DNA from: an uncultured bacterium
GTDB lineage: Bacteria > Actinomycetota > Thermoleophilia > Solirubrobacterales > 70-9
Assembly: GCA_963806865.1 (NCBI GenBank)
Contig: CAWDYV010000002.1
Coordinates: 89,194-153,193, forward strand
Reading direction: 5' to 3'
DNA length: 64,000 nt
Both the position numbers and the translations under genes were made by a program. Shown piece by piece: positions 7,714 through 29,485 of the stretch (positions are counted from its first letter, which is position 1; each line of letters begins with the position of its first letter). The notes beneath the pieces are model-generated. The model saw only the letters and a program-made list of their open reading frames with translations. It searched no databases and was not told the origin of the DNA.

Positions 7714-8478
7714 ATGCGCGATCATTGGAGAGCCGTGCACCGATTTCTTCGCATCATCGCCACCGCGCTCATCACCGCGGGCCTCGTCGTCGCCCTCGAC
7801 GTCGGGCTCACGCTCGCCTGGGAGGAGCCGCTCTCGAACCTCTACGCGCGGTACCAGCAGGGACAAGGCCGAGGACGAGCTGGAGGAGCTCGAGCGGGAC
7901 TTCCCGGACGCCGCGGTCGTCCGACGCCGCTCAACGCGACAGGGAACCTCGAGGAAGAGCGGGTCGCGACCTCGCCGACCGCTTTTCCGAAGCGCCGCAG
8001 GTCGACGAGGGAGCCGGGATCGGCCGGATCGAGATCCCTGCGATCGGACGTCGAGCGCGACGGTCGTCGAGGGCACGGACACCGGCATCGCTTCGGAAGG
8101 GGCCCGGCCACTACGCTCCGGCCGGACGACCCGGAGGTGCGCAGAGCAGGGTGACGGCTCAGCGTTCCCCGGCCAGGGAAGACGGTCGGAATCGCGGGCC
8201 ACCGCACGACCTACGGCGCGCCGTTCAACCGCATCGACGAGCTCGAGCCCGGCGACGAGATCACGCTCGAGATGCCCTACGCGACCTTCACGTACGAGGT
8301 CGAGAGAGGTCGAGATCGTCGATCCGGACGAGATCGGCGTCGTCAGGAACGTCGGCTACGAGCGGCTCGTGCTGAGCGCCTGCCATCCCCTCTATAGCGC
8401 GCTCAGCGCATCATCACCTTCGCCCGGCTCGAGGATTCGAGCCTTTCAGGCTCCGGCGCAGCCTCAGGATCGGAGTGA
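7714..8478 (+). CDS. Sortase family transpeptidase (class E-like), frame-disrupted as assembled
   Basis: N-terminal TM FLRIIATALITAGLVVALDVGLTLAW. Then GRIEIPAIG, LRKGPGHY, GIAGHRTTYGAPFNRIDELEPGDEITLEMPYATFTYEVE, VEIVDPDEIGVVRNVGYERLVLSACHP, QRIITFARL. At least 5 frame changes. The stop TGA 8476-8478 overlaps the next start (GTGA). Confidence 0.7.
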
Positions 8479-9368
8479 GGAACGCACGGCTCATCGGTGC
8501 GGGAGGCGTTGCGGTCCTCGCGATTCTCCTGCTCGTCTCGATCAGCGGAGAGAGCTCCTCCGATTTGGGCCCAAGGCTTGCCTTCGAGGACTCCGACTAC
8601 GAGGCCGAGAGCGCCGTCATATGGGCCGTGGGAGACGGCGCGGACGGGGGAGCGAAGGCACTGGACCTCGCCGACGAGATTCCGACTGACATCGACCGGT
8701 TCCTGTACTTGGGCGACGTGTACCCGAACGGCGCGGCCGAGGACTATGAGACGAACTACGAGCCGGTCTATGGGCAGCTGAAAGACGTCACCTCACCCGT
8801 GATCGGAAACCACGAGTGGAAAAGCCGCAAAGAGGGTTTTCTCTCGTACTGGGCGGACGAAGCTCCGAGCCCCACGCCCCTCTACTACGCCTTCAAGCTC
8901 GCCGGCTGGGAGCTCATCGCACTCAACTCCGAGACCGGCGGAAAGCCCAGCGCAAGCGATTTGCCCTGGCTTCGCTCAGAGCTGAGCGAGACCGGCACGT
9001 GCCGACTCGCCTTCTGGCACACCCCGCGCTTCAGCGCCGGCTTTCACCCCAATGAAAAGCGACTCGATCCTTACTGGAAGCTCCTTCGAGGGCACGCCAC
9101 GCTCGTGCTCAACGGCCACGACCACAATGCCCAGATCTTCAGGCCGATCGACGGAATCACGCAGATGATCGCGGGCGCGGGTGGTCACGAGCTCTATCCG
9201 GCCAATGGCGACGATCCTCGGCTCGCCCTCCTATACGACACAGGTCCCGCCGCGCTCAGGATCGAGCTGGAGCCAGGCCGGGCGCGCTGGGGGCTGATCG
9301 ACGCCGGTGGCGAGACGCTAGAAACCGGCGAGGTCCCGTGTAAGCCCCTGCCGCCCGGGCCCTCTTAG
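8475..9368 (+). CDS. Membrane-anchored/secreted metallophosphoesterase (calcineurin-like)
   Basis: Intact 297-aa ORF. N-terminal TM/signal GAGGVAVLAILLLVSISG. Motifs WAVGDGAD, LYLGDVY, GNHEW, FWHTPRFS, LNGHDHNAQIF. Confidence 0.8.
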   Translation: MRNARLIGAGGVAVLAILLLVSISGESSSDLGPRLAFEDSDYEAESAVIWAVGDGADGGAKALDLADEIPTDIDRFLYLGDVYPNGAAEDYETNYEPVYGQLKDVTSPVIGNHEWKSRKEGFLSYWADEAPSPTPLYYAFKLAGWELIALNSETGGKPSASDLPWLRSELSETGTCRLAFWHTPRFSAGFHPNEKRLDPYWKLLRGHATLVLNGHDHNAQIFRPIDGITQMIAGAGGHELYPANGDDPRLALLYDTGPAALRIELEPGRARWGLIDAGGETLETGEVPCKPLPPGPS

Positions 9369-9391
9369 GAGCCCGCTTCGCGGAGGGAGGC

Positions 9392-10000: not shown

Positions 10001-10341
10001 GGCCGCCGCACGGATCGCGCTTCTTTGAGCATCGCCGTCGAGCAGTCGCGCAGCCCGCTCTCGATTGCTGCCTTGGCGCTTTCAAGTCGCTCGCGCTCGC
10101 CGCGAAGCGCGGCCATCCGCTCGGCGCGGACGTCGGTCACCGCACCCTGGGCCACAACCTCAGAGGCGCGGGAGTCCGCCGTCGCCACCGCGGATCGAGC
10201 TTCGTCATGGGTACGCCTGATCAAGTCGCGGACGCGCCTGAATACCAACTCGGACTCTTCCCAGGAACTCGACATGCCTTGAAAACTATCTGGGAGCTCC
10301 TCGTGCGATCGTGAATCCCTCCGGCGCAAGGATTCTTCCAT
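9997..10341 (-). CDS. Hypothetical coiled-coil protein
   Basis: Intact 114-aa ORF, charged and helical (ERMAALRGERERLESAKAAIESGL). Translationally coupled to the 9392..10000 ORF. Confidence 0.4.
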   Translation of the reverse strand: MEESLRRRDSRSHEELPDSFQGMSSSWEESELVFRRVRDLIRRTHDEARSAVATADSRASEVVAQGAVTDVRAERMAALRGERERLESAKAAIESGLRDCSTAMLKEARSVRRP

Positions 10342-10382
10342 GTCGAGGATGATTTCGGCAAGGCGGACGATACTCCTCGGGG

Positions 10383-11213
10383 ATGCAGCCTCTGGCGCGA
10401 AAACATCTGCCTGCCGTCCTGGCTTTGCGAGCGGTGAGGCGTCGTTCCTCCCGGATCCTCCTCTACCACGGAGTGGGCGAGGCCGGCCGGCCGGAGGACG
10501 AGCACAATCTTGTCGTCGGAGCCGAGCGCTTTCAGCTTCAGCTGTCGCTGCTTGCCGCAGCGGGGTTTCGGTTCGTAACGGTCGCGGAGCTCGCCGCGGC
10601 GACGCCTGACGGCGGCTCTCCCCCAGCCGGGCTGATCTCGATCTCGTTCGACGACGGCATGGAAGACAACTACACCGTCGCGGCCCCGGTCATGGCTCAG
10701 ATGGGAATCACGGGCACGATCTACGTCTTGACTGGATCGATCGGCCAGGACAACCCATGGCTCTCCGGCGAGCGGATGATGACCAGCGCCGAACTCTCCT
10801 CTCTGGCCGGCGCCGGTCACGAGCTGGGCGCGCACACGGTCACACACCCGGACCTGAGCGCGCTCGACTACGAGAGCTGCCTGGCCGAGATGACCGCAAG
10901 CCGCGACGCGATCGCCGAGATCTCGGGGTCTACGCCCCAGACCTTCGCTTACCCGTTCGGCCACTACGGCGCCGCCGCAATCCGGGCGGCGAAGGCAGCG
11001 GGCTTCAAGGCTGCCGTGACCTGCATCAACAGGGGGAGCTGGGCTCCGCTCGAGATGAAGCGAACGCTGATCACCGGCCGTGACGAGATCGCCTCCTTCG
11101 TCGCCCGAGTGAGCGGGGTTTACGAGCCCCTCGTGCTGGGACGAGCCGGATCGGTTGCGCGGGGCGCCACCGCCCGGCTGAGGCGACGCACGCCCGCAGG
11201 GCCGGCCACGTGA
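10383..11213 (+). CDS. Polysaccharide deacetylase (NodB homology domain)
   Basis: Intact 276-aa ORF. ILLYHGV, ISISFDDGMEDNYTVAAPVM, HELGAHTVTHPDLSAL, FAYPFGHY are the NodB-type motifs. Confidence 0.8.
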   Translation: MQPLARKHLPAVLALRAVRRRSSRILLYHGVGEAGRPEDEHNLVVGAERFQLQLSLLAAAGFRFVTVAELAAATPDGGSPPAGLISISFDDGMEDNYTVAAPVMAQMGITGTIYVLTGSIGQDNPWLSGERMMTSAELSSLAGAGHELGAHTVTHPDLSALDYESCLAEMTASRDAIAEISGSTPQTFAYPFGHYGAAAIRAAKAAGFKAAVTCINRGSWAPLEMKRTLITGRDEIASFVARVSGVYEPLVLGRAGSVARGATARLRRRTPAGPAT

Positions 11214-12682
11214 GCGCGCCGGAAAGCGCATCGCAGCGAGCAGGGCGGAGGGCTGCCGGCAACACGGCGATGGTGATGGCCGCCGAGATCGTCGGGCGCC
11301 TCGCGTGGTTCGCGGTTTTCGCCGGACTCGGCCGCACGCAGGGGGAAGCGGCGGTCGGGATCTTTGTATTCGCCGCTGCGTTCGTCCAGATCGCGAGCCT
11401 CGCACTCGACCTCGGCCTCGACCGCTACCTGATCCGGATCGTCGCCAAGGACTGGGAGCGCCGGCACGAGTTGGCATCGGACGTCGCCGCGCTGAAGCTC
11501 GCCTTGTCGGCGCCGCTGGTGCTCGTTGTGCTCGCGCTTTCGGCCGTCCTCGGCTATGAGGGGACGACACAAATCGCGATGCTGATCCTCTCGATCGCGT
11601 TCATCCTGGAATCGCTCGGGCGGACCGTCTCCTCACTCCTGATAGCCAGGGAAAGCGGCCGGCCGATCGCAATCGCGGCGATGGCACAGCGATTGAGCGC
11701 GGCTGGGCTCGGCATCGTTCTCCTCGTCCTGGGGTACAGCGTCATCGCGGTCGCGCTTGCCTACGCGTTCGGCGCAATCGTTGGCCTGGCATTCAGCTGG
11801 GTGCTGATGGCGCGGACGATCGGCGTGCCTCGGTGGACCCCCGCGCGCTCGCGATTCAGCAGTGTCGCCGCCGCGAGCTTGCCGTTCGCGGCGGAGGACG
11901 TCTTCACGGTGCTCTTGTTCAAAGTGGACGCGGTCATCCTCGCGCTGCTCACCACGGAGGCCGCGGTCGGCATCTATGGAGCTGCCTACCGAGTGTTCGA
12001 GGCAACCCTGGTGATCCCGTACGCGCTGTTGCGAGCGTTCTCGGCGATGTACGTTTACCTGGAGCGGACGACCGAGCCGACCATCCAGGGCACGTTTTCG
12101 CGCTCGATCAAGCTTGCTCTGGCTGGGCTCCTACCGCTTTCGGTCAGCTTTGCCCTGCTTGCGGAGCCCTTGCTGGTTGCCGCGTTTGGCGAAGAATTCC
12201 GCGACGCGGCCGACCCCCTACGGCTCCTCGCCCCCGCCGTGGCGATGCTCGGGATTGTCTCGCTTTCGAATGCCGTGATCACGTCTCGGCGCGATCCGCG
12301 CATCGTCTTGTACATGACCGCCGCGATCACGGTATTGAACGTCGCGCTCAACCTCGTCCTGATCCCGCCGTATGAGGCGACCGGAGCCGCTGCGGCGATG
12401 CTGATCTCCGAGACTTTCTTCAGCATCGGCGCGCTTTCGATCGCGACCCGGACGGTGGGCGGCGTCAAGTGGGTGCGGATGCTCGCCGGTCCGCTGATAG
12501 CCGCCGCGGCGATGGCGGCGCTCATCGTCCCCCTCGCGGGTGTCCCGCTGATTGCCCTTGCGGCGGGGGCGCTCGCCTATTCGGGCGTGCTGTACGCGGT
12601 CGAGCGAGTGACGAGCCCGGCCGACGTCGAGTTCGCGCTCGGCCTTGTCCGGCGCGTCCTGCCAAAGAAGGCTCCGGCATGA
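11210..12682 (+). CDS. Oligosaccharide flippase (Wzx-like, MOP superfamily), copy 1
   Basis: Intact 490-aa polytopic ORF. N-terminal AAGNTAMVMAAEIVGRLAWFAVFAGLGR...LGLDRYLIRIVAKD is typical of polysaccharide-biosynthesis (Polysacc_synt) proteins. Paralogous to 25713..27204. Overlaps its neighbours by 4 nt on both sides. Confidence 0.8.
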   Translation: MSAPESASQRAGRRAAGNTAMVMAAEIVGRLAWFAVFAGLGRTQGEAAVGIFVFAAAFVQIASLALDLGLDRYLIRIVAKDWERRHELASDVAALKLALSAPLVLVVLALSAVLGYEGTTQIAMLILSIAFILESLGRTVSSLLIARESGRPIAIAAMAQRLSAAGLGIVLLVLGYSVIAVALAYAFGAIVGLAFSWVLMARTIGVPRWTPARSRFSSVAAASLPFAAEDVFTVLLFKVDAVILALLTTEAAVGIYGAAYRVFEATLVIPYALLRAFSAMYVYLERTTEPTIQGTFSRSIKLALAGLLPLSVSFALLAEPLLVAAFGEEFRDAADPLRLLAPAVAMLGIVSLSNAVITSRRDPRIVLYMTAAITVLNVALNLVLIPPYEATGAAAAMLISETFFSIGALSIATRTVGGVKWVRMLAGPLIAAAAMAALIVPLAGVPLIALAAGALAYSGVLYAVERVTSPADVEFALGLVRRVLPKKAPA

Positions 12683-13770
12683 GAGTCCTGGCCGTCTCGT
12701 CCTACGGGGGCCTCGGCGGCGGTGAGCTCGCCTTCTCCGTATTCCTCGCCGAGCGCCCGACCGACGTCGCTGCCGAGGTCCTGCTCGTAAGCGATGGGCC
12801 CCTGCGGGAGCGGCTCGAAGCCCAGGGGCTCAGCGTTCGCGCGACGAGCGGCTGTGAGGGCAGGCCGACCCCCCGCATGCTCATCTCGTTTCACCGCCAG
12901 CTCCAGCCGATCCTTAACTCAGGGGCGTTCGACGTGGTCTGGGCGGTCGGCCAGAAGGCGGCGCTCTTGGCGGCTCCTGCGTGCCGGCTTCAGCGGGTGC
13001 CGCTCGTCTGGCACAAGATCGACTTCTCATGGGACCGTCTCCTGGCGGTGCCGCTCGGCCTGGCCAGTTCGGGCGTCATCGCGGTGAGCGGCGCCGTCGC
13101 GGACACGCTCGGCCCGATGCGCTTTCGGCGCCCGGTGACGATCGCGGGGCCGCCGGTCGAGCTCGCGCGCAAGGTCTCGCCAAACCCGTCGGCACCTACC
13201 ATCGGCACGCTCGCTCGGCTCGTCCCCTACAAGGGGCATCACTTGATCATCGAGGCAGCGGCGCTCCTTCGAGACGATTTCCCCGATCTGCGCGTTCTCC
13301 TCGCGGGCGAGAGGTCCCCGGCCTATCCGGGCTATCCGGAGCGGCTCCGAGACCTTGCGGCGAGGCTGCGCTTGGCTGACGCACTCGATCTCCCCGGCTT
13401 TATGGCTGCGACCGAAGCGCTCGAGCAGCTCAGCGTGTACGTGAACGCGACCTATCGAGATGACGAAGGCTACGGCCTGGAAGGCCTCTCGGGCGCGATG
13501 CTGGAGGCAAGCGCCGCGGGGCTGCCCGTGGTCGCGACCTCGGGCGGCGGCACGGCCGAAGGAATACTTCCGGGGCGAAGCGGCAGCCTGGTGGACACGG
13601 CGAACGCTACGGCGCTCGCCGCTGCGATCGCCCCCTACCTAGCGGATCCTGAGCTCGCCCGGCTGGCCGGCTTGGAGGGCAAGCGCTTCGTCGCCGCCCG
13701 CTTCAGCCCGGAGGCGGTCGCCAGCCAGCTCTGGCTTGGTCTCAAGTCAGCGTCGCGGACCTCGTCGTAG
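12679..13770 (+). CDS. Glycosyltransferase family 4 (GT-B)
   Basis: Intact. The ATG at 12679 overlaps the upstream stop (ATGA). MRVLAVSSYGGLGGGE..., C-terminal EGYGLEGLSGAMLEASAAGLPVVATSGGGTAEGILPGRSGSLV (the E-x7-E region of GT4 enzymes). Confidence 0.8.
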   Translation: MRVLAVSSYGGLGGGELAFSVFLAERPTDVAAEVLLVSDGPLRERLEAQGLSVRATSGCEGRPTPRMLISFHRQLQPILNSGAFDVVWAVGQKAALLAAPACRLQRVPLVWHKIDFSWDRLLAVPLGLASSGVIAVSGAVADTLGPMRFRRPVTIAGPPVELARKVSPNPSAPTIGTLARLVPYKGHHLIIEAAALLRDDFPDLRVLLAGERSPAYPGYPERLRDLAARLRLADALDLPGFMAATEALEQLSVYVNATYRDDEGYGLEGLSGAMLEASAAGLPVVATSGGGTAEGILPGRSGSLVDTANATALAAAIAPYLADPELARLAGLEGKRFVAARFSPEAVASQLWLGLKSASRTSS

Positions 13771-14874
13771 AGCCCGGCTGTCTTTTCGACCATTCCCTCG
13801 ACCCGGAACATGCTTGCATGACGCTCCTTCGCAGCCGCTCCCATTTCCTCGCGCAGGCCTGGATCCAGAAGCAGCTTGGAGACTGCCGCGGATAGAGCTT
13901 GAGAGTTCTCGGGGGGAAAGAGCAGACCCGTCTTGCCGTCGAGCAGAGCCTCGCCGGTTCCACCGACGTTCGACGCGACTTGCGGAACCCCACAGGCCAT
14001 TGCCTCCAGGATCGCGATGGGCAATGCCTCCCACAAGGAGCTGAGGACGAGCACGTCGATAGAGCCGAGCTGGCGCGAAGATGGTTGGCGAAACGGGAAG
14101 AATCCGAACCGATCGCCCAAGCCCTTCTCGAGGGCGCGCTGGCGAAGCTCACCTTCCAGCTCACCGTTTCCGATCACCGCAAGGACGGCTTCGGGACACT
14201 GCTCGAGAATCGCCTTAGCCGCGTCGACGAACACGTGAACGGCCTTCTGCTCGCGAAGCGCGCAGAGCGTGGCCGCCATCGGGCGACCCGCCCGGAATTC
14301 CTCGAGATCTCAAGTCCAGGTCCACGGCGGTTTCGGGCTGCGGGCAGGCGTTGTGGATCACGCGGAGGCGCTCCGGAGGCACGATGTCGTAGTCGATCGC
14401 GATCTCCCGCTCGTCTTCGGCCGCGCACAAGAGGACGTCCGTGACGTCACCGGAAAACCTTTCGATCGTTGCCGATGTCCACGTGTGCAAGCGCGAGTAC
14501 GGCGCCACGAACGGGAAGCATTGAGGGCTGTAGATCTCACGCGCGGGGACGCTCCGGGCGGCTAGGCGGGCGAGGAAGCCGGCCTTCGCATTGTGGGAGT
14601 GCACCAGGTCCAAGTGCTCACGGCGCATGATCAAGATCAGCTGGCGCAGGGCGGTGAGGTCAGCGTTCGGGTGGGAAAACCCCGTTCTGAACGGCAGCCG
14701 CGCCAATGGCACCCCGGCGGCTCGCAGGTCGTCGTAGATCACTGACTCGCGCGGCCCGACCACGAACGGCTGCCAGCCGTGCTCAGGGAGGCCCAAGGCG
14801 AGGAGCCTGACGTTCTCGGCGACGCCGCCGTCAGGTGGATCGAAGACAAGCAGCACGCGTCCCACGAGCGGCAC
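13635..14874 (-). CDS. Glycosyltransferase family 4 (one frame break near 14.29 kb)
   Basis: N-terminal half in ORF 14215..14874 (VLLVFDPPDGGVAENV...DLVHSHNAKAGFLARL). C-terminal half in ORF 13635..14279 (VLSSLWEALPIAILEAMACGVPQVASNVGGTGEALLDGKTGLLF). The 3' end overlaps the convergent GT4 gene and may be shorter. Confidence 0.75.
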
Positions 14875-14942
14875 AGCCTAATCAGTTGCAGGGCCGGCGC
14901 TACCTATGCGTCCGGACGCGAGGCGGCTGTACTCTCACGCTC

Positions 14943-16367
14943 ATGACGGCCTTTCGGGACAGGGCGTGGGGGCTGCCGCCAGAACTCGCCGTAGCGACCC
15001 TGCTGGCCGGAATGGCCGCGTTCGCCGTCGTCCTCACCTACTCGGCGTACGCCCTCGGACCGGCGCTGATACCGGCCGCGCTAGTCGGGCTCGCGGTCGT
15101 AGCAATCGCGCTGAGCCAACCTGTCGCGGGTATCTGCCTGGCGTTCTTGGCGGCGCCGCTCGAGATCTTCGCGCTCCCACTCCCTACTGGCTCCCTCTCT
15201 GCCTCCGAGGGGATCTTTGCCGTCGTCGGCCTCGGCTACCTGGCCCGCCTCCTCTTTCGCCCCGAGACGGTTTCAAAGCCGTCCGTCTCCGACATCCCTT
15301 ATGCGATCCTTCTGGCCGCGATCGCCGTTGGGATCGGCATCGCGTCGGACCCTGTCCCCGTGATCAGAATCCTCGTGTTGTGGTCTCTCTTCTACCTCGT
15401 CTACCTACAGGTCCAGTCCTTCAGCGACACCCAGATCCGCCGCGTGTTGTGGAGCCTCGCAATCGGAGGCGCGGTGCTCGGCGCGATCGGCGCCTACCAG
15501 TTCGTCACGTCGGGCGGAGGCGGGCTTTATGCGGGTGGAGCGGGGACTAACGTCCGTGCGACTGGCACCTTCGGCGAGGCCCTCGGGGACAGCAACTACT
15601 TTGCCTCGTTTCTCCAGCTCGCGGCGCTACCTGCGATCGCCCTCCTAATCGCGCGCCCTCGGGAGAACGTGGTCTTGGTCCCGCTGGTTGCGATCGCAGT
15701 GACCGGGCTGGCCTTTTCGCTCTCTCGGGGCGGAATGCTCGGATTCGGAGCAGGAGTACTGCTGCTCCTGCTCTGGGGGCGGGCGCGTTGGATGGCGGGA
15801 GGCGTCGCCGCCCTGGTCGCCATCCTCACGATCGCCGGCGCCAATCCGCTGGTCGCATCGAGCTCGTTCGAGACCGTCGAGCAGCGTCTCACCACGATCG
15901 GAGACGTCTCTCAAAGCTCGTTGAATACCCGGCCCGAGCTGTTCGAAGGCGCACTCGAGATGACCATCGATCACCCGGTCACCGGGGTGGGCCTCAACCA
16001 GTTTCAGGAATACGCGGCGCGGCAAGGACTCACCGAGCGCGGGTTGCCCCACGAAACCGCGCACAACGTCTATCTGAGCCTTTCGGCGGAGACCGGCCTG
16101 ATCGGCCTCGGAGCCTTTCTTTTCTTTCTCGTGTTTCTGGGGCAACGCGGAGTCGCAGCCCTACGCCACCGCGCTCCGATGGCGCGAGCGGCCGCGTTCG
16201 GTTGCGCCGCGTCCCTCTTCGGATTCGCAATCCAGGGCATGACGGTGAGTCTCAACCGCAACAACCTCCTCTGGGCGACATTCCTGGTCCTCGCTGGAAT
16301 CCTGGTCGCCCTGAGCAACCGCCCGATCGAGACGGACGAGGCGGTCGAGACATCGCCCCTGACCTGA
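14943..16367 (+). CDS. O-antigen ligase/polymerase-like membrane protein (Wzy_C domain)
   Basis: Intact polytopic ORF. ...AFSLSRGGMLGFGAGVLLLLLW... and the periplasmic loop ...GVGLNQFQEYAA...HETAHNVYLSLSAETG are typical of the O-antigen ligase family. ATG 14943 chosen as start; the ORF is open from 14835. Confidence 0.7.
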   Translation: MTAFRDRAWGLPPELAVATLLAGMAAFAVVLTYSAYALGPALIPAALVGLAVVAIALSQPVAGICLAFLAAPLEIFALPLPTGSLSASEGIFAVVGLGYLARLLFRPETVSKPSVSDIPYAILLAAIAVGIGIASDPVPVIRILVLWSLFYLVYLQVQSFSDTQIRRVLWSLAIGGAVLGAIGAYQFVTSGGGGLYAGGAGTNVRATGTFGEALGDSNYFASFLQLAALPAIALLIARPRENVVLVPLVAIAVTGLAFSLSRGGMLGFGAGVLLLLLWGRARWMAGGVAALVAILTIAGANPLVASSSFETVEQRLTTIGDVSQSSLNTRPELFEGALEMTIDHPVTGVGLNQFQEYAARQGLTERGLPHETAHNVYLSLSAETGLIGLGAFLFFLVFLGQRGVAALRHRAPMARAAAFGCAASLFGFAIQGMTVSLNRNNLLWATFLVLAGILVALSNRPIETDEAVETSPLT

Positions 16368-16377
16368 TAGATCTGGT

Positions 16378-17218: not shown

Positions 17219-18628
17219 TTGGCGTATTATCGCCGCGTGCGCGACGCTACGGCCGTTCAAGTAATCAACCGCCACCGCTGGCTCATCCTCGCAACTTTCG
17301 CGATCTTCGTGGTCGTGACAGCGGTCTACTCGAAGAGCCTCGAGAAGATCTACGCGACCGAAGCGGCGCTGCTCGTCTCCGTACCAGCGGAGGAGGCGTC
17401 CTTCGACACCGTCCAGGCCTCACAATCGCTGGCGCGCTCCTACGGGGAGATCGCACAGAGCCGCAACCTCGCCGAACGGGTCGCGGTGGAGCTGGACGAC
17501 GGGACGGACGCGAGCGACCTCTTGGACGCGACCAGCGTCGAGCCCGTCTCAGAAACTCAGCTCTTGGAGATCAGCGCCGAGGATCCCAATCCCGAGCGAG
17601 CGCAGCTCATCGCCAACACGTACGCGCGCGTCTTCGTCGAGTACACGGAGGGACCGATCTCGGCCTCCACCCGTGCCAACGTGACGCTGGCCGACCCGGC
17701 TCCGCTGCCAACATCGCCCGCCCGCCCCAAGCCGACTGTTTACACGCTCATCGCCGGTCTTTTGGGCCTGGCCCTGGGTCTCGGGCTTGCGTTCGTTCGC
17801 GAGCAACTCGATACCCGGATCCGGAGCATGGACGAAATCGAGGAGCGATTCAGCCGGACGGTGCTGGCCCGCGTCCCCACGCGAGGCCGCTCCGAAAACT
17901 CGATGCAGGCCTTTACCGAGGCGTTCCGGATCTTGCGAACCAACCTTCAGTTCGTTCGCGTCGACGCGGGCAGCTTGAGGTCGATCGCGATCACCAGTGG
18001 GCGCGAGGGAGAGGGCAAGACCACGACGACCGCGCAGCTCGCGCTCGCCGCGGCCGAGGTCCGAATGAAGGTGATCGTCGTCGAGGGTGATCTCCGTAAG
18101 CCAACCCTGCAGACCTCACTGATGGACGGCTCGGATCAGGCACTTTGGCCCGGCCTCAGCAACTACCTGGTCGAGACGGCGGACCTCGACGACGTGATCC
18201 ACCAGTCTGGGCATCCCAACCTCTCGGTGGTGCCCGCGGGCCCGCCGCCGCCAAACCCGTCGAACCTCCTCGAGGTGCCACGCGGGGCCAAGCTCGTCAG
18301 AGGGCTCTTGGAACGCGCTGATCTGGTGATCGTGGATACGCCGCCGATCAGCGCCGGAGCTGATGCAGCGATCATGGCGACCTGGGTAGACGGGGTAGTC
18401 GTGGTCGCGGACCTCGCTCAGTCGACTCATAAGGGCGTTGCCGATGCGCTCAAGCAGCTCGATGCCGTGAACGCCGTCACACTGGGCCTGGTGCTCAACC
18501 GCGACAAGGGCGTGGCCGGCACAAGCTATGGCTACTACGGACAGGCGGAGCCTGATCCGCAGCTCAACGGCAGCCCTTCCTCGCCGGTTGAGTCGCTCGT
18601 CGCGCCGGGTTCGAAGACCGACGACTGA
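17219..18628 (+). CDS. Polysaccharide co-polymerase / BY-kinase fusion (Wzz domain plus CpsD/CapB-type tyrosine kinase)
   Basis: Intact 469-aa ORF. Two TM segments flank a Wzz-like loop. Walker A ITSGREGEGKTTTTAQLA, A' VIVVEGDLRKP, Walker B LVIVDTPP. The C-terminal SYGYYGQ Tyr cluster is short. Confidence 0.85.
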   Translation: MAYYRRVRDATAVQVINRHRWLILATFAIFVVVTAVYSKSLEKIYATEAALLVSVPAEEASFDTVQASQSLARSYGEIAQSRNLAERVAVELDDGTDASDLLDATSVEPVSETQLLEISAEDPNPERAQLIANTYARVFVEYTEGPISASTRANVTLADPAPLPTSPARPKPTVYTLIAGLLGLALGLGLAFVREQLDTRIRSMDEIEERFSRTVLARVPTRGRSENSMQAFTEAFRILRTNLQFVRVDAGSLRSIAITSGREGEGKTTTTAQLALAAAEVRMKVIVVEGDLRKPTLQTSLMDGSDQALWPGLSNYLVETADLDDVIHQSGHPNLSVVPAGPPPPNPSNLLEVPRGAKLVRGLLERADLVIVDTPPISAGADAAIMATWVDGVVVVADLAQSTHKGVADALKQLDAVNAVTLGLVLNRDKGVAGTSYGYYGQAEPDPQLNGSPSSPVESLVAPGSKTDD

Positions 18629-18638: not shown

Positions 18639-19761
18639 TTGGCCCGGGTAGTCCTAGCCCTTCGCGCCGACAAGGGCGGCGCCTTCAATCACGTCGTTCA
18701 GATCTCAGACGCGCTCGTGGCGCGGGGACACGAGGTCTTCCTGGCGGGGCCGCACGCAGCCAAGCAAGAGGAGATCGCGGCCACCGTCGTCCCGCTGGAG
18801 ATCGCGCGTAGCATCTCGCCCGTCGGTGACCTGAAAGCCATTGGGTCCTTCGGCAAGCTCGTCCGCAAGCTTCGGCCCGACATCGTCCATGCCCACGGCT
18901 CGAAGGCAGGCGTGGTGGCGCGTGTCGCTCGCCTCGCGACTCCGCGCACACCGGTTGTCTTCACGCCCAACCTGTACGCGTTCGACAATCACTTCGCTCG
19001 CCCGGGAGAGCGCCGCGCCTACCGCGCGATCGAGCGTGTGCTCGCCCCTGCCGCTTCACGCGTGATCGGTGCGTGTGAGAACGAGCGCCGCCTGGCGGCC
19101 CAGGTCGGCCCTGCCAGCCGAACCCGGACCGTGCACAACGGCGTCGATGCGATTTCCCTCGCCAACGTCCACCCAAAGGTGGCGGAGCTATCCGAGCAGG
19201 GGCCCGTGATAGTCACCGTCGCCGAGCTTCGGGAGTCGAAGGGAGTCGTGACCTTGATCGAGGCCATGAATCAGGTCCAGGCGAAGATGCCCGAAGCACG
19301 CCTTGCGATCGCAGGAGACGGCGCCGACCGGGCGCGGGTCGAACGACGTGTGCGCGATCTGGGCCTGTCGGACAAAGTGTTCTTGTTGGGGGCGACCCAG
19401 GGAGCGGACGCCGTGCTCGCGGGGGCTGACGTGTTCGTCAACGCGGCCTACGCAGAGGGGTTTCCTTACACCGTCATCGAGGCGATGTCGGCCTCGCTGC
19501 CCATTGTGGCCACGGATGTCGGGGGTACCCGTGAGGCCATCAAAGATGGCGAGACTGGTTTCCTGGCAAAGGCCGGCGACCCCGAGTCGTTGGCCCGCCC
19601 GATCCTGAGGGTCTCTAGGGGATCGGGAGCTGGCAAAGCGCATCGGGAACGCAGCAGCCAAAGCCCATGCGGAGCGCTTTACGAGGGAGTTGATGATCAG
19701 TGGCGTCCTCGCCGTCTACGCGGAGCTGGCTCCCGGCTTTGCCGAGCCCTCGTCCGCCTGA
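18639..19761 (+). CDS. Glycosyltransferase family 4 (one frame break near 19.61 kb)
   Basis: VVLALRADKGGAFNHVVQISDAL..., DIVHAHGSKAG, VNAAYAEGFPYTVIEAMSASLPIVATDVGGTREAIKDGETGFL. The tail GDRELAKRIGNAAAKAHAERF...-stop (TGA 19759-19761) is in another frame, with the break at a G-run. The start codon is uncertain (TTG 18639). Confidence 0.75.
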
Positions 19762-19872: not shown

Positions 19873-22221
19873 TTGCCAAAGCCCGATCGGGATGCTATGG
19901 AGGCATCCGGAGTACGAACTCGTCGCGGATCGAGCTCGCTGCTTCTGGCGCTCACGCTGGCGTTGGCAGGTGGTGCCGGCATCGCTCATGCGGGCACGAG
20001 CGAGTTGCGCCCGGTCTCCGACCACACCCGCGGCTGGACGCCCGTGCGCGCAAGCGCGACGTGGGAGGCCATTGACGATCCAATCACGGCCGGCCAGCCG
20101 GTCCGGGGGCTCGATCGCGTCTCGGCGCGCAAGGGCCGCAGGACCACGGCTGTGAACCTCGCCGAGCCGGCGATGGCGGGCGAGGACGAGACGCCAGCCA
20201 AGCTTATCGCCCACTTTCATGCGAAGACCGGCATGAAGACTCGCATGCGGGTCTCGTTCCGGGCAGGCAACCGCGTCCTTGCGCGCGACAGGATCGGGCC
20301 GCATTCACCCTCCCGCTGGCGCCACCTGTCAGAAACCCGGCTCGCGGGAGTCGACTTGAGCCAACTCCGCTTGATCTTTCGGTCCTCGCGCCACCGTAAC
20401 GCGACCGTGCGGGCCGCATACGCCGCCCTCAAGACCGAGCCCGTGGATATCGATCCGCCGGACGTCTCGCCTAGCGGGAGCTCCGTCTCGGTGTTCGGCT
20501 CTACGACCACAATCAGGCCCGGCCTCGAGACCCCGACCAACGGGGCGAACCAGGCGAGCCTGGTGGCGGCTCGCAACGAGTTCGAATCGTTCCAGGTAGT
20601 CGTCGACGCCACGGACGGCGCTCTCAACGACGTCGAGATGAAGCTAGACGGGGCGCTCTCGGGCCCTGGCGGAGCGACGATCGCGCCGACCAACGTGACC
20701 GTTTACCGCGAGGAGCATTACGAGGTCTCCGCCGCCAAGGGCAAGCCGCGGTCCTCTCGCAAGGGCGACGAGGGCCGCTGGCCCGACGCGCTCATTCCTG
20801 AGCGCGACCCCTATTACGGTGAGGACCGCTCGGCCTTTCCCGTCGACATCCCGAACGGCAAGAAGGAGGTCGCCTGGATCGACGTCTTCGTGCCGCCGAC
20901 GGCCTCTCCGGGGCTGTATTCCGGTGAGCTTCGGCTGACCGATGCGACCGGTGAGTTGGACACGGTGCCCGTGTGGGTTCGCGTGAGCACCTTCGCGATG
21001 CCATCAACCGCGACCCTCCGGAGCGCTTTCTTGGCGACGCCACCCGGCTACTTCCCGTGCCGGGCCCACCGGTCGACCGACTGGTGCCATCCCGAGGAAG
21101 AGCGCAACTGGAAGCTCGATTACCTCTATGCCCGCGCCGCCTTGGAGAACCGGATGACGATCCCGAACGCGATGCCCGGCGCCTACGGCCAGGCGCCCAC
21201 CTCGCCCTACTTCGAGCAGTACATCCTGCCGTTGATCAAGGGCACCGACGGCGGTGGGATCGACGGCACGCTGGCACCCCGCCTCGAGGGAGCGAAGATG
21301 ACGTCGGTGACGGCGATGTGGATGTGCATCGTTGACCAAACCTGCCTTTCCGAGTGGCGCCAGCTTGCTCAGGAGCACGACTTCGGCTCCAAGTTCTTCG
21401 CCTACGTTTGCGACGAGCCACGCGACGGGAACACCCCGGAGTACTGGAGTGACTGGGGAGATTGTTCTCGGAACTCACGCCGTGCGAAGCAGATCTGGCC
21501 GCAGGTAAAGACGCTGGTCACCTCCCACATCCAGGGCGCCCAAGAGGCGCAGCAGGACGGCTCGATCGACATCAGCCGGGACATCGACATCCTCACCACG
21601 CCGGTCAACTACATGGTGAACCGGCCCTACAACCCGCAGGCGGGCGACCAGAGCTCTGCCTACGACGGGTTCCGCTCGAAGGCAGGCAACGAGAGCTGGC
21701 TTTACACGGCCTGCCCTCAGTTCAGTTGCGACGAGCAGGAGTCGCCCTACTTCGACGGCTGGCCCGCCTACGCCATCGATCAGCCTGCTTCTCAGGCTCG
21801 TGCGATGGGCTGGGTCTCATACCTCTACGGCTCTGACGGCGAACTCTCCCACAACACCGTGCTGGAGCTCGATCAAGCCTGGCAGAACCAATACGCGTTC
21901 GGCGGTAATGGCGACGGCACTCTGTTTTACCCCGGTAGCCCGAGTGGCTTCGGCGGCGCGCCGGCGATCGGGGGTCAGCACGACATCCCGATTGAATCGA
22001 TCAGGATGAAGCGCTTTCGCGAGGGGCGCGAAGACTACGAGCTGCTCAACGCGATGAAGGCGGCGGGCCAGGGTCAGGCGGCGACCGCCGCTGTCACCAC
22101 GCTCCTTGGCCCACGTGACACGGCGATGTTCTCGACCGATGTCTCGCAGGGCAAGATCAGTTCGCTCCGGTGCACCGCGATGACTGCGCTCGATCCGTCG
22201 GTCGCCGCCGACTGCCCGTAG
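19873..22221 (+). CDS. Secreted DUF4091 / GH123-like putative glycoside hydrolase
   Basis: Intact 782-aa ORF with signal peptide SLLLALTLALAGGAGIAHA. NEFESFQVVVDA..., ...GRWPDALIP..., ...VAWIDVFVPPTASPGLYSGELRL match my recollection of DUF4091-containing hydrolases. Family assignment is from memory, not a search. Confidence 0.5.
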   Translation: MPKPDRDAMEASGVRTRRGSSSLLLALTLALAGGAGIAHAGTSELRPVSDHTRGWTPVRASATWEAIDDPITAGQPVRGLDRVSARKGRRTTAVNLAEPAMAGEDETPAKLIAHFHAKTGMKTRMRVSFRAGNRVLARDRIGPHSPSRWRHLSETRLAGVDLSQLRLIFRSSRHRNATVRAAYAALKTEPVDIDPPDVSPSGSSVSVFGSTTTIRPGLETPTNGANQASLVAARNEFESFQVVVDATDGALNDVEMKLDGALSGPGGATIAPTNVTVYREEHYEVSAAKGKPRSSRKGDEGRWPDALIPERDPYYGEDRSAFPVDIPNGKKEVAWIDVFVPPTASPGLYSGELRLTDATGELDTVPVWVRVSTFAMPSTATLRSAFLATPPGYFPCRAHRSTDWCHPEEERNWKLDYLYARAALENRMTIPNAMPGAYGQAPTSPYFEQYILPLIKGTDGGGIDGTLAPRLEGAKMTSVTAMWMCIVDQTCLSEWRQLAQEHDFGSKFFAYVCDEPRDGNTPEYWSDWGDCSRNSRRAKQIWPQVKTLVTSHIQGAQEAQQDGSIDISRDIDILTTPVNYMVNRPYNPQAGDQSSAYDGFRSKAGNESWLYTACPQFSCDEQESPYFDGWPAYAIDQPASQARAMGWVSYLYGSDGELSHNTVLELDQAWQNQYAFGGNGDGTLFYPGSPSGFGGAPAIGGQHDIPIESIRMKRFREGREDYELLNAMKAAGQGQAATAAVTTLLGPRDTAMFSTDVSQGKISSLRCTAMTALDPSVAADCP

Positions 22222-24568: not shown

Positions 24569-24588
24569 GGACGGCACGAGGACCCGGG

Positions 24589-25716
24589 ATGCTGGAAGCG
24601 ATCGTCACCGATGGGGGCCTTCGCAACGTCCTTGCCGGAATCCGCGGCTTGGGGCGGGCGGGCGTCCAGATCTTGGTGACGGCGGAGCGAAGTACGGCGG
24701 CCGGGATGCGTTCGCGCTACGCGACGGAGCGAGTAGTGCTGCCCTCGGTCAACGACGACCAGCGGCGCTTCGCTGCCGCAGTAAGTGCGCTGGCTACCGC
24801 GCGAGCAGACGGCCTCGAGCAGCCGATCGTCGTCCATCCTGGTCGTGAGGAGGCGATCGACGCGCTGATCGAGCACGCGCCGGCATCGGAGGCATGGCGG
24901 CTCCCATGGCCGGCGGCATCCGCGCGGCTGCTTCGCCAGAAGGAGTCGCTGGGCCGGCTTGCGAGTGAGGCGGGCGTGCGAACCCCGCGAACGCTCGCGA
25001 TGGGGACCGCGGCCGAGCTTGAGGCCGAGCCGCCGAAGACGCCGTCGATGCTCAAGCCTCTCGGCCCAGGCGGTGGCCGAGTCGTGCCCGCACCTGAGCC
25101 GGCGACGCTCGCGCGCGTGCTTTCTGAGTGGCCTGATGCAAGCGAGTCGATCGTGGTGCAAGAGCGCGTGGACGGCACCCTGGTGTCACTCAGCGTCGTC
25201 GTCGACTCCGACGGCCAAGTCGTGGCCGCGTTTCAGCATCGGGCGTTGAGGACGTGGCCTGAAGCGGCCGGGACGACCTCAGCCGCGATCGGAGAAGCCG
25301 TGGACGACGATCTCCTCGATGCGGCAACTCGGCTCTTGCGCGCGGCTTCTCACCAGGGATTCGCGCAGGTCCAGTTCTTGGCGGATGCAGGCGGCGCTGC
25401 GGTGATCGACGTCAACTGCGGGTTCCCTGGATCGCTGCCCCTGGCTCTCGCCAGCGGCGTCAATCTGCCGCTGACCGCGCACCGCGTTGCGCGTTCTGAG
25501 CCGGTCGTGGCGACCCGGCCCTATCGCACCGGCCTCCGCTACCGCTGGCTCGAAGCGGACCTGATGGCTTTCGTACACGGTCGTCCCGGTGCGCTGTGCC
25601 GAGCACCGGGCTCCATCGGGGCGGTTTGGGCGCGCGACGATCCGGTTCCTAGCGTGCTCTTGACCCTCGATGGGATTATCGCCAGGGCACGCCGTCTCGC
25701 GAGGGTGGCGCGGTGA
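24589..25716 (+). CDS. ATP-grasp domain protein, paralog 2 (tandem with 23426..24568)
   Basis: Intact and colinear with paralog 1. AIVTDGGLRNVLAGIRGLGRAGV..., GFAQVQFLADAGGAAVIDVNCGFPGSLPLALASGVNLPLTAH, AVWARDDP shared near the C-terminus. GTGA overlap with the next gene. Confidence 0.7.
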   Translation: MLEAIVTDGGLRNVLAGIRGLGRAGVQILVTAERSTAAGMRSRYATERVVLPSVNDDQRRFAAAVSALATARADGLEQPIVVHPGREEAIDALIEHAPASEAWRLPWPAASARLLRQKESLGRLASEAGVRTPRTLAMGTAAELEAEPPKTPSMLKPLGPGGGRVVPAPEPATLARVLSEWPDASESIVVQERVDGTLVSLSVVVDSDGQVVAAFQHRALRTWPEAAGTTSAAIGEAVDDDLLDAATRLLRAASHQGFAQVQFLADAGGAAVIDVNCGFPGSLPLALASGVNLPLTAHRVARSEPVVATRPYRTGLRYRWLEADLMAFVHGRPGALCRAPGSIGAVWARDDPVPSVLLTLDGIIARARRLARVAR

Positions 25717-27204
25717 GCGCTGGTCAGGAGTCCGCAGAGCGCTCGTCGAGCTCGACCGCCCGAAACGTCGGCGCTCGAGCCGCCGCCGAGGTGATCGGAA
25801 AGCTCGCGTCCCTTGTCCTGTTCGCGGCAATCGCCCGCAGGCTCGGCGTCGAGCAGCTCGGCGTCTTCGTCCTCGCCTTCTCGGTCGTTCAGATTGCCTT
25901 CGTCGCGATCGATCTCGGTCTCGATCGCTACCTCTTGCGTGAGGTAGCGCGGGACCGCTCGTCCCTGCAAGGGTGGGTGGGCTCGATCCTCGCGGCCAAA
26001 GCGATCCTGGCGGCGCCGGTGCTGGCGGCGACGGTCGCGCTTACTTTCGTCGTGGGGTATACGGGCCAGCAGCAAAAGGCGATCGCGCTCGTCGCCGTCG
26101 CTCTCTTCTTCGACTCTCTGGCTCGAACCGCCTTCGCGGCTTTGAACGCGTTCGAGCGCGGCGATGTGCTGTCGCTCTCGCTATTGGCACAGCGCATCGG
26201 GGCGGCTGGGGCCGGGCTGGCGGTCCTCGCGGCCGGATATGGGGTCGTCGCTGTCTGCGCCGCGTTCGGCGCGGGAACCGCCATCGGCACCGTCGTCGCG
26301 TTCGTAGCCCTGTGTCGAGTCACAGGCCTACGGCTCGGAGCGACTTCGGCCCACCGGCTGGCGGCGAGCTGTCGGCGTCAGCCGCGCCTTTGCCCTGCAA
26401 GACGTCTTCACGCAGCTGCTCTTTCGATTGGACGCGGTCATCCTCTCGGTGATCTCGACGGCGACCGCCGTAGGCATCTATGGCGGCGCCTATCGCCTGC
26501 TCGAGGCGACGTTCTTCATGACCCAGGCCGTCTCGGGCGCGTTCTCCGCGCGCTTTGCCTACCTGAGCCCGACGACCGAGCCCTCGGTCGCAGAGGTGTT
26601 CGAGCGCTCGCTCAAGCTCGCGATCGCGCTCCTGGCGCCGGTGACTGTGCTCTTCGGGGTTCTTCCCTCTCCCCTTCTCGACCTCCTGTTCGGCCCAGAG
26701 CTCGTCGATGCCTCACAGCCGCTCAGGCTCCTCGCGCCCGCCGTGGTCTTGATGGGCATCGTCAAGCTGGGCGGCTCCGTGATCGCCTCGCAGGAGAGTC
26801 CCCGCATCCTGGTTTGGACCACCGCTTCGGCGGTCGTCCTGAACGTGGCCCTCAACCTGGTCTTGATCCCTCGCTACGAGGCAAGCGGCGCTGCGCTTGC
26901 GATGCTGGTGACCGAGGCGCTCCTGGCCGGCGCCATCCTCGTAATCGCGTCACGAGTCGTGGGCGGTCTCGACCTAAAGCGGCTCTTCGCGGCTCCTGCC
27001 CTGGCGACCATCGCGGCGACGGTGGTCGCGCTGGTTCTTCGCGACGAACCTGTGCTTGCGGTCGCCGCCGGACTTGCGGCCTACGCCGCCTCGTTCGTCC
27101 TGGTCGAGCGGGTCGTCAGCCCGGGTGACCTGGCGGCGCTCAGAGGCGTCTTTAAAGGCAAGGAGGCGTCTTGGCGCGATCCGACCGATCATCGTTTCGA
27201 GTGA
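25713..27204 (+). CDS. Oligosaccharide flippase (Wzx-like), copy 2 (one frame break near 26.35 kb)
   Basis: N-terminal half in ORF 25713.. (ARAAAEVIGKLASLVLFAAIARRLG...LGLDRYLLREVARD). C-terminal half in ORF 26428..27204 (AVGIYGGAYRLLEATFF...LNLVLIPRYEASGAALAMLVTEA). Clear paralog of 11210..12682. Confidence 0.75.
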
Positions 27205-27227
27205 TACGGCCGATAAGTAAAGGGTTC

Positions 27228-29054
27228 ATGCTGTTTTACGTGAGATTCAGCTGCACCGGGTGGGCGATCGCCGTGCTTGCTGCGTTGAGCATGGCTGCGT
27301 CTGCTCCGGCCCATACCCCTGGCGCGCATTCGCACGCCCCTCTTTCGGCTGGACATCAGGGCGAGCACGATTTCATCTTGGACGTCCAGCGCCGCTTTGA
27401 CGCCTTGGGTGAGCGTCGTCAGCAAGCCTTGAGCGCGAAGCAAGAGCGCTCCGCTCAGGCGTACGCCGAGCGGACGGCGGCCCGGGGCACGCCTGAGCAA
27501 GTCGGCGCCTGGACTCAGGCGCCGTTCGAGCTGCCCAACTACGCGATCCACGCCATTCTCATGCCCACCGGCAAGGTGCTTTTCTGGGGCTACCCGCCCC
27601 TTTCGCGCTTCAAGAACATCGGGGAGGTGGCCGTCTGGGACCCGGCGAAGGGATACGGAGAAGACGCGTTCGAATCTGTCACGCCGCCTACGATCGACCC
27701 CGACGGTCCTGAGGGCCCCCAAGAGCCGGGTCCCGCCCCGGTCTACTGCTCGGGGCTGTCCCTCCTTCCCAGCGGCGACGTCCTCTTGGCCGGGGGCAAC
27801 TATGTGTGGCCCTCCATTGATCCTGACGACGAGTACGAGGAGTTCAGCGGGATCGACACCGTTTTCACCTTCAACCCCTGGAACGAGTCGTGGGTACAGC
27901 AGCCCTCGATGTCGGAAGGTCATTGGTACCCCTCGCAGGTCCTCCTCGGCGACGGGCGGACACTCATCGCAGGCGGTTACACCGAGGAGGCTCCCGGCGC
28001 CGTCTTGACCGACGACGTCGAGATCTTCACTCCCGGCGCGAATGCGGGCTCGCTGGGCCAGGTCGAGCTTTCAGCTTCAAGCCGCGAGACCGGGCTCTAC
28101 CCGCACATGTTCGGCCTTCCCGACGGCAACGTGCTCCTGGCCGGGCCCAACTACATCGACTCGGCCCTGATCGAACCGCACCCCGAGGACGCGAGCGACT
28201 TCGTCTTCGAGGACCTCGAGCACGCGTCGCGCGACCGCATCGGCGGAACCGCGGTGCTCAGGCCTGCGGGAGCGAACGGGTCGTGGCGGGTGACGCAACT
28301 CGGCGGCTTTGCGTACGGCACGGCGCCCGAAGGCGACGACATACGGCCTGCGACCAACACCACCGAGACGATCGACGCCCGAGCCGGCAAGCGCGATTGG
28401 GCGGAGGACAAACCTTTGAACGTGAGGCGCTGGTACCACAACACGGTGCTCCTGCCCGACCGCTCGATGGTGACGATCGGAGGCGGCGCGGGCCGGTCTA
28501 GCTTGGAAGGGAACAACTACGGGCTCGATCCGGACAATCCCCAGCGCCAGGTCGAGGTCTACGACCCCGCCAGTGACACGTGGCGCCTGGGTCCGGCACA
28601 ACTCGAGGATCGCACCTACCACTCGAGCGCGGTGCTCCTGCCCGATGGGCGCGTCTGGTCTGCAGGCGACGATCTTTACCCGCTGCGTCCCGGTGGAGAG
28701 AAGAGCGAGGTCGACACCGCGGAGCTCTACTCGCCGCCCTATCTCTTCAAGGGCCCTCGCCCCAAGCTTCGCTCGGCGCCCGACCGCATCTCATACGACG
28801 CCCGCTTCACCATTCGCACGCGCAAAGGCTCTCCGCGAGTCACGACCGCGGTCCTGTCGGCGCCCTCTGCCGCAACGCACGGCGCCGACATGCATCAGAG
28901 ACTCGCGCCGTTGCGCGCCAAGAAGTCGAAGGGCACGAAGATCGAGCTCGTGGCGCCGCCGAACGAGAACGTCGCTCCTCCAGGGTTCTACATGCTGTTC
29001 GGCCTGAGCGCGAAGGGCGTGCCGTCGGTCGCGCGCTGGGTCGAGGTCGGCTAG
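27228..29054 (+). CDS. Secreted galactose oxidase / glyoxal oxidase-like protein (kelch propeller plus DUF1929)
   Basis: Intact. Signal peptide WAIAVLAALSMAASAPAHT. GHWYPSQVLLGDGRTLIAGG, RWYHNTVLLPDRSMVTIGGG, YHSSAVLLPDGRVWSAGD. C-terminal ELYSPPYLFKGPRP...SAATHGADMHQR...APPGFYMLFGLSAKGVPSVARWVEV. Confidence 0.75.
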   Translation: MLFYVRFSCTGWAIAVLAALSMAASAPAHTPGAHSHAPLSAGHQGEHDFILDVQRRFDALGERRQQALSAKQERSAQAYAERTAARGTPEQVGAWTQAPFELPNYAIHAILMPTGKVLFWGYPPLSRFKNIGEVAVWDPAKGYGEDAFESVTPPTIDPDGPEGPQEPGPAPVYCSGLSLLPSGDVLLAGGNYVWPSIDPDDEYEEFSGIDTVFTFNPWNESWVQQPSMSEGHWYPSQVLLGDGRTLIAGGYTEEAPGAVLTDDVEIFTPGANAGSLGQVELSASSRETGLYPHMFGLPDGNVLLAGPNYIDSALIEPHPEDASDFVFEDLEHASRDRIGGTAVLRPAGANGSWRVTQLGGFAYGTAPEGDDIRPATNTTETIDARAGKRDWAEDKPLNVRRWYHNTVLLPDRSMVTIGGGAGRSSLEGNNYGLDPDNPQRQVEVYDPASDTWRLGPAQLEDRTYHSSAVLLPDGRVWSAGDDLYPLRPGGEKSEVDTAELYSPPYLFKGPRPKLRSAPDRISYDARFTIRTRKGSPRVTTAVLSAPSAATHGADMHQRLAPLRAKKSKGTKIELVAPPNENVAPPGFYMLFGLSAKGVPSVARWVEVG

Positions 29055-29485
29055 GGGCTGACCCCGCCGCCGCCGCCGCCGCTTCCTCCCCCACCGCCGC
29101 CGCCGGGGTCGACGGGCTCTTCTGGCTCTTCTGGTGGCTCCTCTGTGGGCGGCTCCTCGGCAGGTGGCTCCTCAGGCGGCGGCTCTTCGGCTGGAGGCGC
29201 CGCGGGCGGAGGCGTGGGCGCGGGCTCCTCAGGTTCGTCGGGCTCCTCGGTCTCTGTGGTGGTTGAAGATGTGCTGGAGGTAGTAGAGGTCGAGGGCTCT
29301 TCGTCGTCGTCACCCCCCGCGATGACGGCCAGCGCGATGCCGACTCCAAGCGCCACCGATGCGAGCAGGATGAGGGCGATCCGCCCGCCCCTGCCCATCC
29401 CGTCCTGGTCGTCGTGCTCAGGCGGTGGATCGGCCGGATAGTCAGGCTCGCGGGAAGGCATGTGGCGAGTGGGGTCTTCGCTCAT
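29051..29485 (-). CDS. Single-pass membrane protein with Ser/Thr-, Pro/Glu- and Gly-rich low-complexity ectodomain
   Basis: 144-aa ORF. Its ATG overlaps the argD stop (ATGA). It has a TM helix RIALILLASVALGVGIALAVIAG, then STSTTSSTSSTTTETEEPDEPEEP...(EEPP)n...GGGGGGGSGGGGGG. Other frames are also open here, so the coding call rests mainly on the TM helix and the coupling. Confidence 0.45.
   Translation of the reverse strand: MSEDPTRHMPSREPDYPADPPPEHDDQDGMGRGGRIALILLASVALGVGIALAVIAGGDDDEEPSTSTTSSTSSTTTETEEPDEPEEPAPTPPPAAPPAEEPPPEEPPAEEPPTEEPPEEPEEPVDPGGGGGGGSGGGGGGVSP

Follow-up and report, generated by a model that had tools for sequence, protein, structure and literature searches.

Reading frames in a 64,000-nucleotide window of the metagenome-assembled genome G000 (contig C2, positions 89194-153193) hold together across a block of about 21 kb that carries a surface-polysaccharide gene cluster, and fall apart on both sides of it, in genes as indispensable to the cell as pheT, infC and thrS. 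This contrast is an artefact of a known kind and not a biological feature. We think it probable that the frame-broken, or dirty, blocks are a long-read consensus in which several related, co-occurring populations have been collapsed, and that the intact, or clean, blocks represent a single haplotype. G000 itself consists of 2.37 Mb in 4 contigs at 69% GC, with a CheckM completeness of 57% and a contamination of 0.13%. It is an error-laden and highly contiguous genome of a soil actinobacterium resembling the Solirubrobacterales, very probably assembled from long reads only; we infer the long-read origin from the combination of 4 contigs with 57% completeness and from the type of error. Two genomes of good quality from the same genus, G003 (86% complete, 80 contigs) and G010 (94% complete, 3 contigs), served for comparison.

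Frame integrity in the window and across the genome

At the GC content of G000, long open reading frames (ORFs) are present in all six frames, as the ORF list of the window illustrates, and ORF length alone was therefore not relied on. Frames were called with a seven-state hidden Markov model (HMM) of the phase of GC at third codon positions (GC3), built on a position-specific codon model that was trained on the long, high-GC3 ORFs of G000 itself. Only 66 ORFs of at least 1.5 kb qualified for training in 2.37 Mb, which is itself a warning sign. Clean and dirty classes, with low and high densities of frame switches respectively, were then taken from a two-state segmentation of the HMM output. 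In the window, the model switches frame 0.90 times per kb between 8.8 and 28.8 kb (C2:98001-118000), compared to 3.02 times per kb in the stretch that contains the left flank (C2:5001-98000) and 3.49 times per kb in the right flank. Both G003 and G010 show 0.5-1.3 switches per kb throughout the syntenic 80 kb, so about one switch per kb is what ordinary gene boundaries produce. The lengths of the frame segments tell the same story: 530-2240 bases within approximately 8.4-29.1 kb, and mostly 50-600 bases in both flanks. A first-pass annotation, made from the letters of the window alone, had described a near-intact block of 21 kb between two frame-broken flanks, and these densities bear out that description.

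In the left dirty flank (1-8400), spurious single-base indels affect argG and the genes for an HD-GYP-like protein, an MFS transporter and a sortase alike. In the right one (30139-64000), spurious extra bases come at about 5 per kb; its genes are argD, argB, pheT, pheS, rplT, infC, thrS, those of pot-type transporters and those of an amine-catabolism cluster. The intact proteins of G003 match these flanks only in fragments that lie in different frames: thrS and argG in six pieces each, the HD-GYP-like gene in four, argD in three, and the pot-type transporter genes in three to four. The earlier proposal that flank genes need several frame changes each is thus confirmed. In a three-way MAFFT alignment of the window with G003 and G010, in which indels were counted if private to the window, 26.5 kb of the right flank contain 139 one-base insertions and 12 one-base deletions, a ratio of 12:1; the same alignment has a single private one-base insertion in G003 and four in G010. 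The left flank from 6153 to 8458 contains 16 one-base insertions and 3 deletions found in the window only, the last indel lying at 8400. infC alone has taken up 5 insertions in 0.87 kb. All of the flank genes are intact in G003 and G010. Breaks in thrS, pheT, infC, rplT and argG, part of a pattern that extends over 57% of the genome and consists of single extra bases absent from the relatives, are on this comparison of sequences errors of assembly or consensus and not gene decay.

The clean block is not entirely free of such errors. Three of its genes had been thought to need one frame change each, and exactly three were found, two encoding GT4 glycosyltransferases and one encoding a second Wzx-type flippase. 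A GT4 gene on the reverse strand is broken at 14218-14279: its N-domain lies in ORF 14218-14874 and its C-domain in ORF 13638-14279, with Pfam Glyco_trans_4_4 in one and Glycos_transf_1 in the overlapping ORF of another frame; the HMM switches at 14309/14310. On the forward strand, at 19606-19625, one extra base lies near two G-runs close to the C-terminus of the GT4 gene at 18639-19761, and a typical GT4 C-terminus resumes in the +1 frame and ends in a TGA at 19759-19761. Also on the forward strand, at 26308-26430, the gene of the second Wzx/MATE-type flippase runs over two ORFs: Pfam assigns the N-terminal half (Polysacc_synt) to 25713-27125 and a MatE-like C-terminal half to 26428-27201; here the HMM switches at 26313/26314.

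For the second of these breaks an independent sequence is available. A Logan contig of 7.2 kb from the short-read run ERR12035939 encodes a Wzz protein identical to that of the block (17219-18628, forward strand), and on this contig the GT4 gene that follows is intact, with 373 amino acids (1122 nt), where the window needs 1123 nt. The ORF downstream of this GT4 gene in the window is likewise offset by +1. Together with the intact genes of the relatives and the near-exclusive occurrence of single extra bases, the absence of this break from the short-read contig supports the earlier view that the breaks are sequencing or consensus errors and not pseudogenes. Flank proteins gave no comparable match. 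The read-through ThrS matches only relatives at no more than 94% identity, plus one truncated match at 96%. The frame-intact flank ArgB (31843-32709, reverse strand) has no exact match in a public protein-position index, which is weak evidence given its uncertain start codon; two other proteins of the block also lack an exact match in the index, their start sites having probably been wrongly chosen. An exact match for Wzz and none for ArgB fits the idea that the dirty sequence does not exist as such in nature, as far as a single comparison goes.

The window samples a mosaic that runs through the whole of G000. Clean sequence amounts to 1.03 Mb, spread over about 22 blocks of 5-241 kb with 0.2-1.3 frame switches per kb; dirty sequence amounts to 1.34 Mb, in 21 blocks of 10-275 kb with 2.6-3.5 switches per kb. 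The edges between the two are sharp. Pairwise statistics against G010, computed per block over the entire genome, separate the two classes. Relative to their G010 counterparts, dirty blocks have gained a net 4.8 bases per kb and clean blocks have changed by -0.1. Without exception, dirty blocks show 5.2-8.2 one-base insertions per kb together with a GC asymmetry of 25-52 per kb; the corresponding figures for clean blocks are 0.8-4.1 and 2-18 per kb, with one outlier of 5.6 kb. One-base deletions are alike in both classes (2.5 vs 2.4 per kb). G010 covers 56% of the clean and 82% of the dirty sequence. We considered as a general rule that clean sequence is accessory sequence, and rejected it: this is a tendency only, and many clean blocks are core genome, 75-85% covered by G010.

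Two parts of G000 stand out by composition. Contig C4 (293 kb), the lowest in GC (66.8%), is clean along nearly all of its length, and 71% of it is without a DNA match to the main contig of G010. It may represent an accessory replicon or sequence private to the strain, or else may belong to another population and have been mis-binned. Positions 1-5000 of contig C2, at the contig end, have only 58% GC and are fully matched in G010, with just 37 substitutions per kb; a ribosomal RNA operon is the probable explanation.

Extra bases and missing private alleles

The positions of the extra bases are far from random. As a null expectation, the real insertions were removed, random ones were put in, and the sequence was realigned. 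The first-pass annotation had noted indels often at short homopolymers, and this did not hold up: only 35 of the 139 inserted bases (25%) extend a run, which is rarer than among random insertions (about 48%; p = 3e-8), and the other 104 (75%) differ from both neighbours, as do 46-58% of the simulated ones. The deficit of run-extending insertions speaks against homopolymer-driven sequencing error as their source. Homopolymer errors of Nanopore R9-type reads are mostly deletions. The insertions gather at sites that vary among the genomes. A variable column of the three-genome alignment adjoins 63% of them (35-45% simulated), and a third codon position adjoins 80% (67% expected; p = 3e-4). In 32% of cases, as opposed to 9-15% in the simulations (p = 3e-9), the inserted base equals the alternative allele of G003 or G010 at an adjacent mismatching column. 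For example, the window reads GTCG[C]GTCA at a position where G003 has G and G010 has C, and thus holds both.

The two classes also differ in composition. G000 has a GC content of 0.674 in clean and 0.705 in dirty sequence, and the matching segments of G010 have 0.666 under both classes; G003 (0.676 vs 0.669) and G022 (0.672 vs 0.668) likewise show no native difference. Since the relatives have equal native GC under both classes, the GC excess is a property of the dirty consensus, a result of the process and not its cause. The difference is confined to third codon positions, with a GC3 of 0.856 in clean and 0.920 in dirty sequence and equal GC at first and second positions. Within the window, GC3 rises from 0.828 in the block to 0.882 in the left and 0.939 in the right flank, in agreement with the earlier impression, formed by eye, that the block uses more codons ending in A or T.

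Substitutions private to G000 were compared between three clean regions, with an aligned length of about 7-18 kb apiece, and three dirty regions of 14.5, 31 and 6.6 kb. Sister genomes are expected under a molecular clock to have branches of equal length, and in the three clean regions this is what is seen: G000 has 65-97 private substitutions per kb, about as many as the relative's own branch. In the dirty region L138 and in the right flank of the window, the number falls to 31-45 per kb while the branches of the relatives stay at 66-92; in the right flank taken alone, it is 37 per kb vs 66 for G003. Overall, the terminal branch is about 40% shorter in dirty blocks. The loss concerns mainly changes from G or C to A or T, which drop from 27-41 to 8-11 per kb. 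Dirty blocks lack about 22 private A/T alleles per kb, and the block-by-block comparison with G010 finds this deficit in all 21 of them. A clean and a dirty sample of 20 kb share their nearest relatives, with similar levels of identity. A short private branch and missing A/T alleles mean that the dirty sequence behaves as a consensus, one without the young, private and mostly A/T-ward alleles of a single genome.

The surface-glycan locus between the flanks

The clean block spans 8437-30130 (8475-29485 in the first-pass annotation) and contains a species-specific surface-polysaccharide gene cluster, which we take as single-haplotype sequence under the reading favoured here. Its long uninterrupted ORFs, which had been singled out earlier, are indeed present in the ORF list, namely 19873-22221, 27171-29054, 14835-16367, 11210-12682 and 17219-18628. 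Pfam matches identify genes for a phosphoesterase, a polysaccharide deacetylase, Wzx, three GT4 glycosyltransferases, Wzy, a CpsB phosphatase, a Wzz/tyrosine kinase, a GH123-like protein, a FemAB-like acyltransferase, two ATP-grasp ligases, the second Wzx and a galactose-oxidase-like protein. The FemAB-like acyltransferase, the two ATP-grasp ligases and the second flippase suggest a glycan decorated with amino acids.

No DNA homologue across the block was found in the five relatives checked. Their homology to the window breaks off at 8458 and is picked up again at 29507-29543; in each of the five, a different insert of approximately 8-36 kb sits between the same flanks, sortase and argD (G003:C3:109719-136202 and G010:C2:841619-867833 in the two genomes used for alignment). 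The galactose-oxidase-like gene at the right end (27363-29119) is the sole gene of the block to keep a weak DNA similarity (64%), as a diverged orthologue of the gene that the relatives have at this position. Judged by these alignments, the sortase-argD site is a hypervariable surface-glycan locus.

How closely do the edges of the clean block follow the ends of this locus? Both transitions had been described as abrupt and as falling at gene junctions. The left one is indeed sharp: the last indel of the left flank lies within 60 bases of the end of homology. On the right, the first error appears only at 30139, about 650 bases past the proposed junction and about 600 bases inside the homologous sequence, a gap that at 5 errors per kb has a chance of about 4%.

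A probable collapsed consensus and its alternatives

The reading that we consider probable accounts for these patterns as follows. In dirty blocks, reads of several related, co-occurring populations would have been collapsed into one consensus; in clean blocks, a single haplotype would have contributed, giving an accurate one. At variable sites, which are mostly wobble positions, the consensus step would often write both alleles in succession, adding one base and breaking the frame every 200 bases or so. Elsewhere the majority allele would be kept, so that the young G/C-to-A/T changes of the lineage would be lost and the dirty sequence would look ancestral and GC-rich at third positions. A plausible cause for the writing of both alleles is a polisher whose error model ranks a missing base as cheaper than a mismatch. 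The 21-kb block, on this account, would owe its clean state to its nature as a hypervariable locus that one strain alone possesses: reads of other populations would have found nothing there to align to, and the regime would switch at the edges of homology.

Several observations weigh against this account or limit its reach. That several haplotypes are mixed in the flanks, and that the block holds only one, we infer rather than observe, and the test for the presence of both alleles uses two other species as proxies for the strains that would actually have co-occurred. The left flank (1-8470) only half fits a simple model of a collapsed consensus: it has about 7 one-base insertions per kb and yet a near-normal branch of 73 substitutions per kb, its count of G/C-to-A/T changes (27 per kb) is clean-like, and its GC3 is intermediate. 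A private locus accounts for the block of the window and not for every clean block, as the many clean blocks of ordinary core genome, including some core stretches of about 100 kb, make plain. Finally, the edges between clean and dirty sequence are not significantly enriched at G010 homology breaks across the genome (40% vs 30%, P = 0.12, at a resolution of approximately 1-3 kb).

Other explanations would dispense with mixed strains or would place the two classes in different organisms. Plain residual errors of a long-read consensus, with flanks of low coverage or without polishing and with clean blocks better covered or polished with short reads, would suit the patchy, block-wise pattern, the low completeness in few contigs and the presence of the block sequence in a short-read run. 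Random read errors, though, would lengthen the private branch and not shorten it by about 40%, would neither remove A/T alleles nor lift GC3 by 6 points, and would not cluster at variable wobble sites or reproduce the alleles of relatives; nor do one-base deletions show any excess. We therefore regard residual error without strain mixing as unlikely. The hybrid or chimeric assembly that the first-pass annotation listed among its possibilities came closest to the evidence if understood as a consensus over several related populations. As a chimera of two organisms, in which a well-covered species of about 67% GC supplied the clean sequence and a poorly covered one of about 70% GC the dirty sequence, the two being joined along conserved synteny, it is decidedly improbable. 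The classes do differ in GC, GC3 and distance to the relatives, and in dirty regions the branch of G003 is a little shorter and that of G010 lies at the top of its clean-region range. Against this stand the shared closest relatives at similar identity, the CheckM contamination of only 0.13%, and the length of the branch, for a second species would show a clock-like branch and not 31-45 per kb beside 66-92 in its sister. The block, moreover, occupies a variable site in synteny, and the gene at its right end is the diverged orthologue of the gene that relatives have there.

Composition could also have driven the error rate, another possibility raised earlier, if high-GC stretches were miscalled or were lost from short-read polishing by GC bias and the lower-GC block was read correctly. 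The density of frame switches correlates with GC at the 10-kb scale (r = 0.66-0.80), and the block is lower in both GC and GC3. Yet none of G010, G003 and G022 has a native GC difference between the classes, the first 3000 positions of the window are dirty at 66-68% GC, and the insertions avoid homopolymers; the equal GC of the matching G010 regions led us to reject the claim, and we give it very little credence. Least of all do we believe in real decay or recoding, with the flank genes as true pseudogenes or as users of programmed frameshifting, even though the sequence as deposited does contain the frame breaks. Decay would have to affect some 57% of a genome, its essential translation genes included, almost exclusively by single-base insertions, and would leave a private branch lengthened rather than shortened; the relatives carry every gene intact, and one of the breaks within the block is missing from the independent contig that encodes the identical neighbouring Wzz.

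A collapsed consensus has precedents of several kinds. In a long-read assembly of Trypanosoma brucei, collapsed alleles with nearby variants led to wrong read alignment, indel errors and frameshifts, and the ORFs were recovered by phasing (Cosentino, Brink and Siegel 2021, PMC8445201). Regions of low heterozygosity there correspond to our clean blocks; the case differs in concerning a diploid eukaryote, whose two alleles are set apart by about 4 variants per kb, where we have a bacterial mixture with an inferred divergence of several percent and about 5 errors per kb. Pipelines for genomes from soil metagenomes sequenced by Nanopore only use Flye and one round of Medaka, and microdiversity has been noted as their limiting factor (PMC12313526). 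A consensus of this strain-oblivious sort (metaFlye and Medaka, soil; PMC12313526) shares with G000 a contiguous genome of low completeness and patchy, +1-biased frameshifts at variable sites with genes intact elsewhere. The short branch, the A/T deficit, the rise of GC3 by 6 points and an extent of more than half of a genome were not found stated in that literature. The homopolymer errors of Nanopore R9-type reads (PMC9262707) also fragment genes by single-base indels, lower IDEEL and CheckM scores, and are cured by better reads or polishing. Those errors sit in homopolymers, unlike the insertions of G000, which lie outside them in 75% of cases and outnumber deletions 12:1.

G000 does not appear to be alone. 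Completeness is only 51-79% in several metagenome-assembled genomes of this genus that consist of at most six contigs, G002, G004, G005, G009 and G012 among them, a combination that suggests the artefact. G012 is dirty in both regions examined (L003 and L145-L147), with 2.1-2.3 frame switches per kb, a shortened private branch and raised GC. The artefact is likely to be common among public genomes of this genus.

These observations matter for data quality and not for biology. G000 is the representative of its species in the one-genome-per-species collection of GTDB release 232, and more than half of it would be a blurred consensus with about 0.5% inserted bases. Dirty blocks bias gene calls, pseudogene counts, completeness estimates, codon-usage and GC statistics, average nucleotide identity and branch lengths. 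The broken thrS, pheT, infC, rplT, arg and pot genes are to be treated as intact, and the contrast between the flanks and the intact glycan cluster should not be read as a sign of selection or gene decay. The combination of +1 insertions by variable wobble sites, a short private branch and raised GC3 offers a diagnostic for collapsed-strain blocks that needs no reads.

More tentatively, the mosaic might be a readable footprint of population structure, a possibility that we hold to be less likely than not. Dirty blocks would then mark segments close enough among co-occurring Solirubrobacterales lineages to collapse, for example through gene flow, and clean blocks would mark segments with one haplotype on its own, being strain-private, recently swept or too diverged; the glycan locus and the core stretches of about 100 kb would be among the latter. 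If this is so, the deficit of about 22 A/T alleles per kb would gauge the young G/C-to-A/T variants that arise, and are later purged, in a lineage of high GC.

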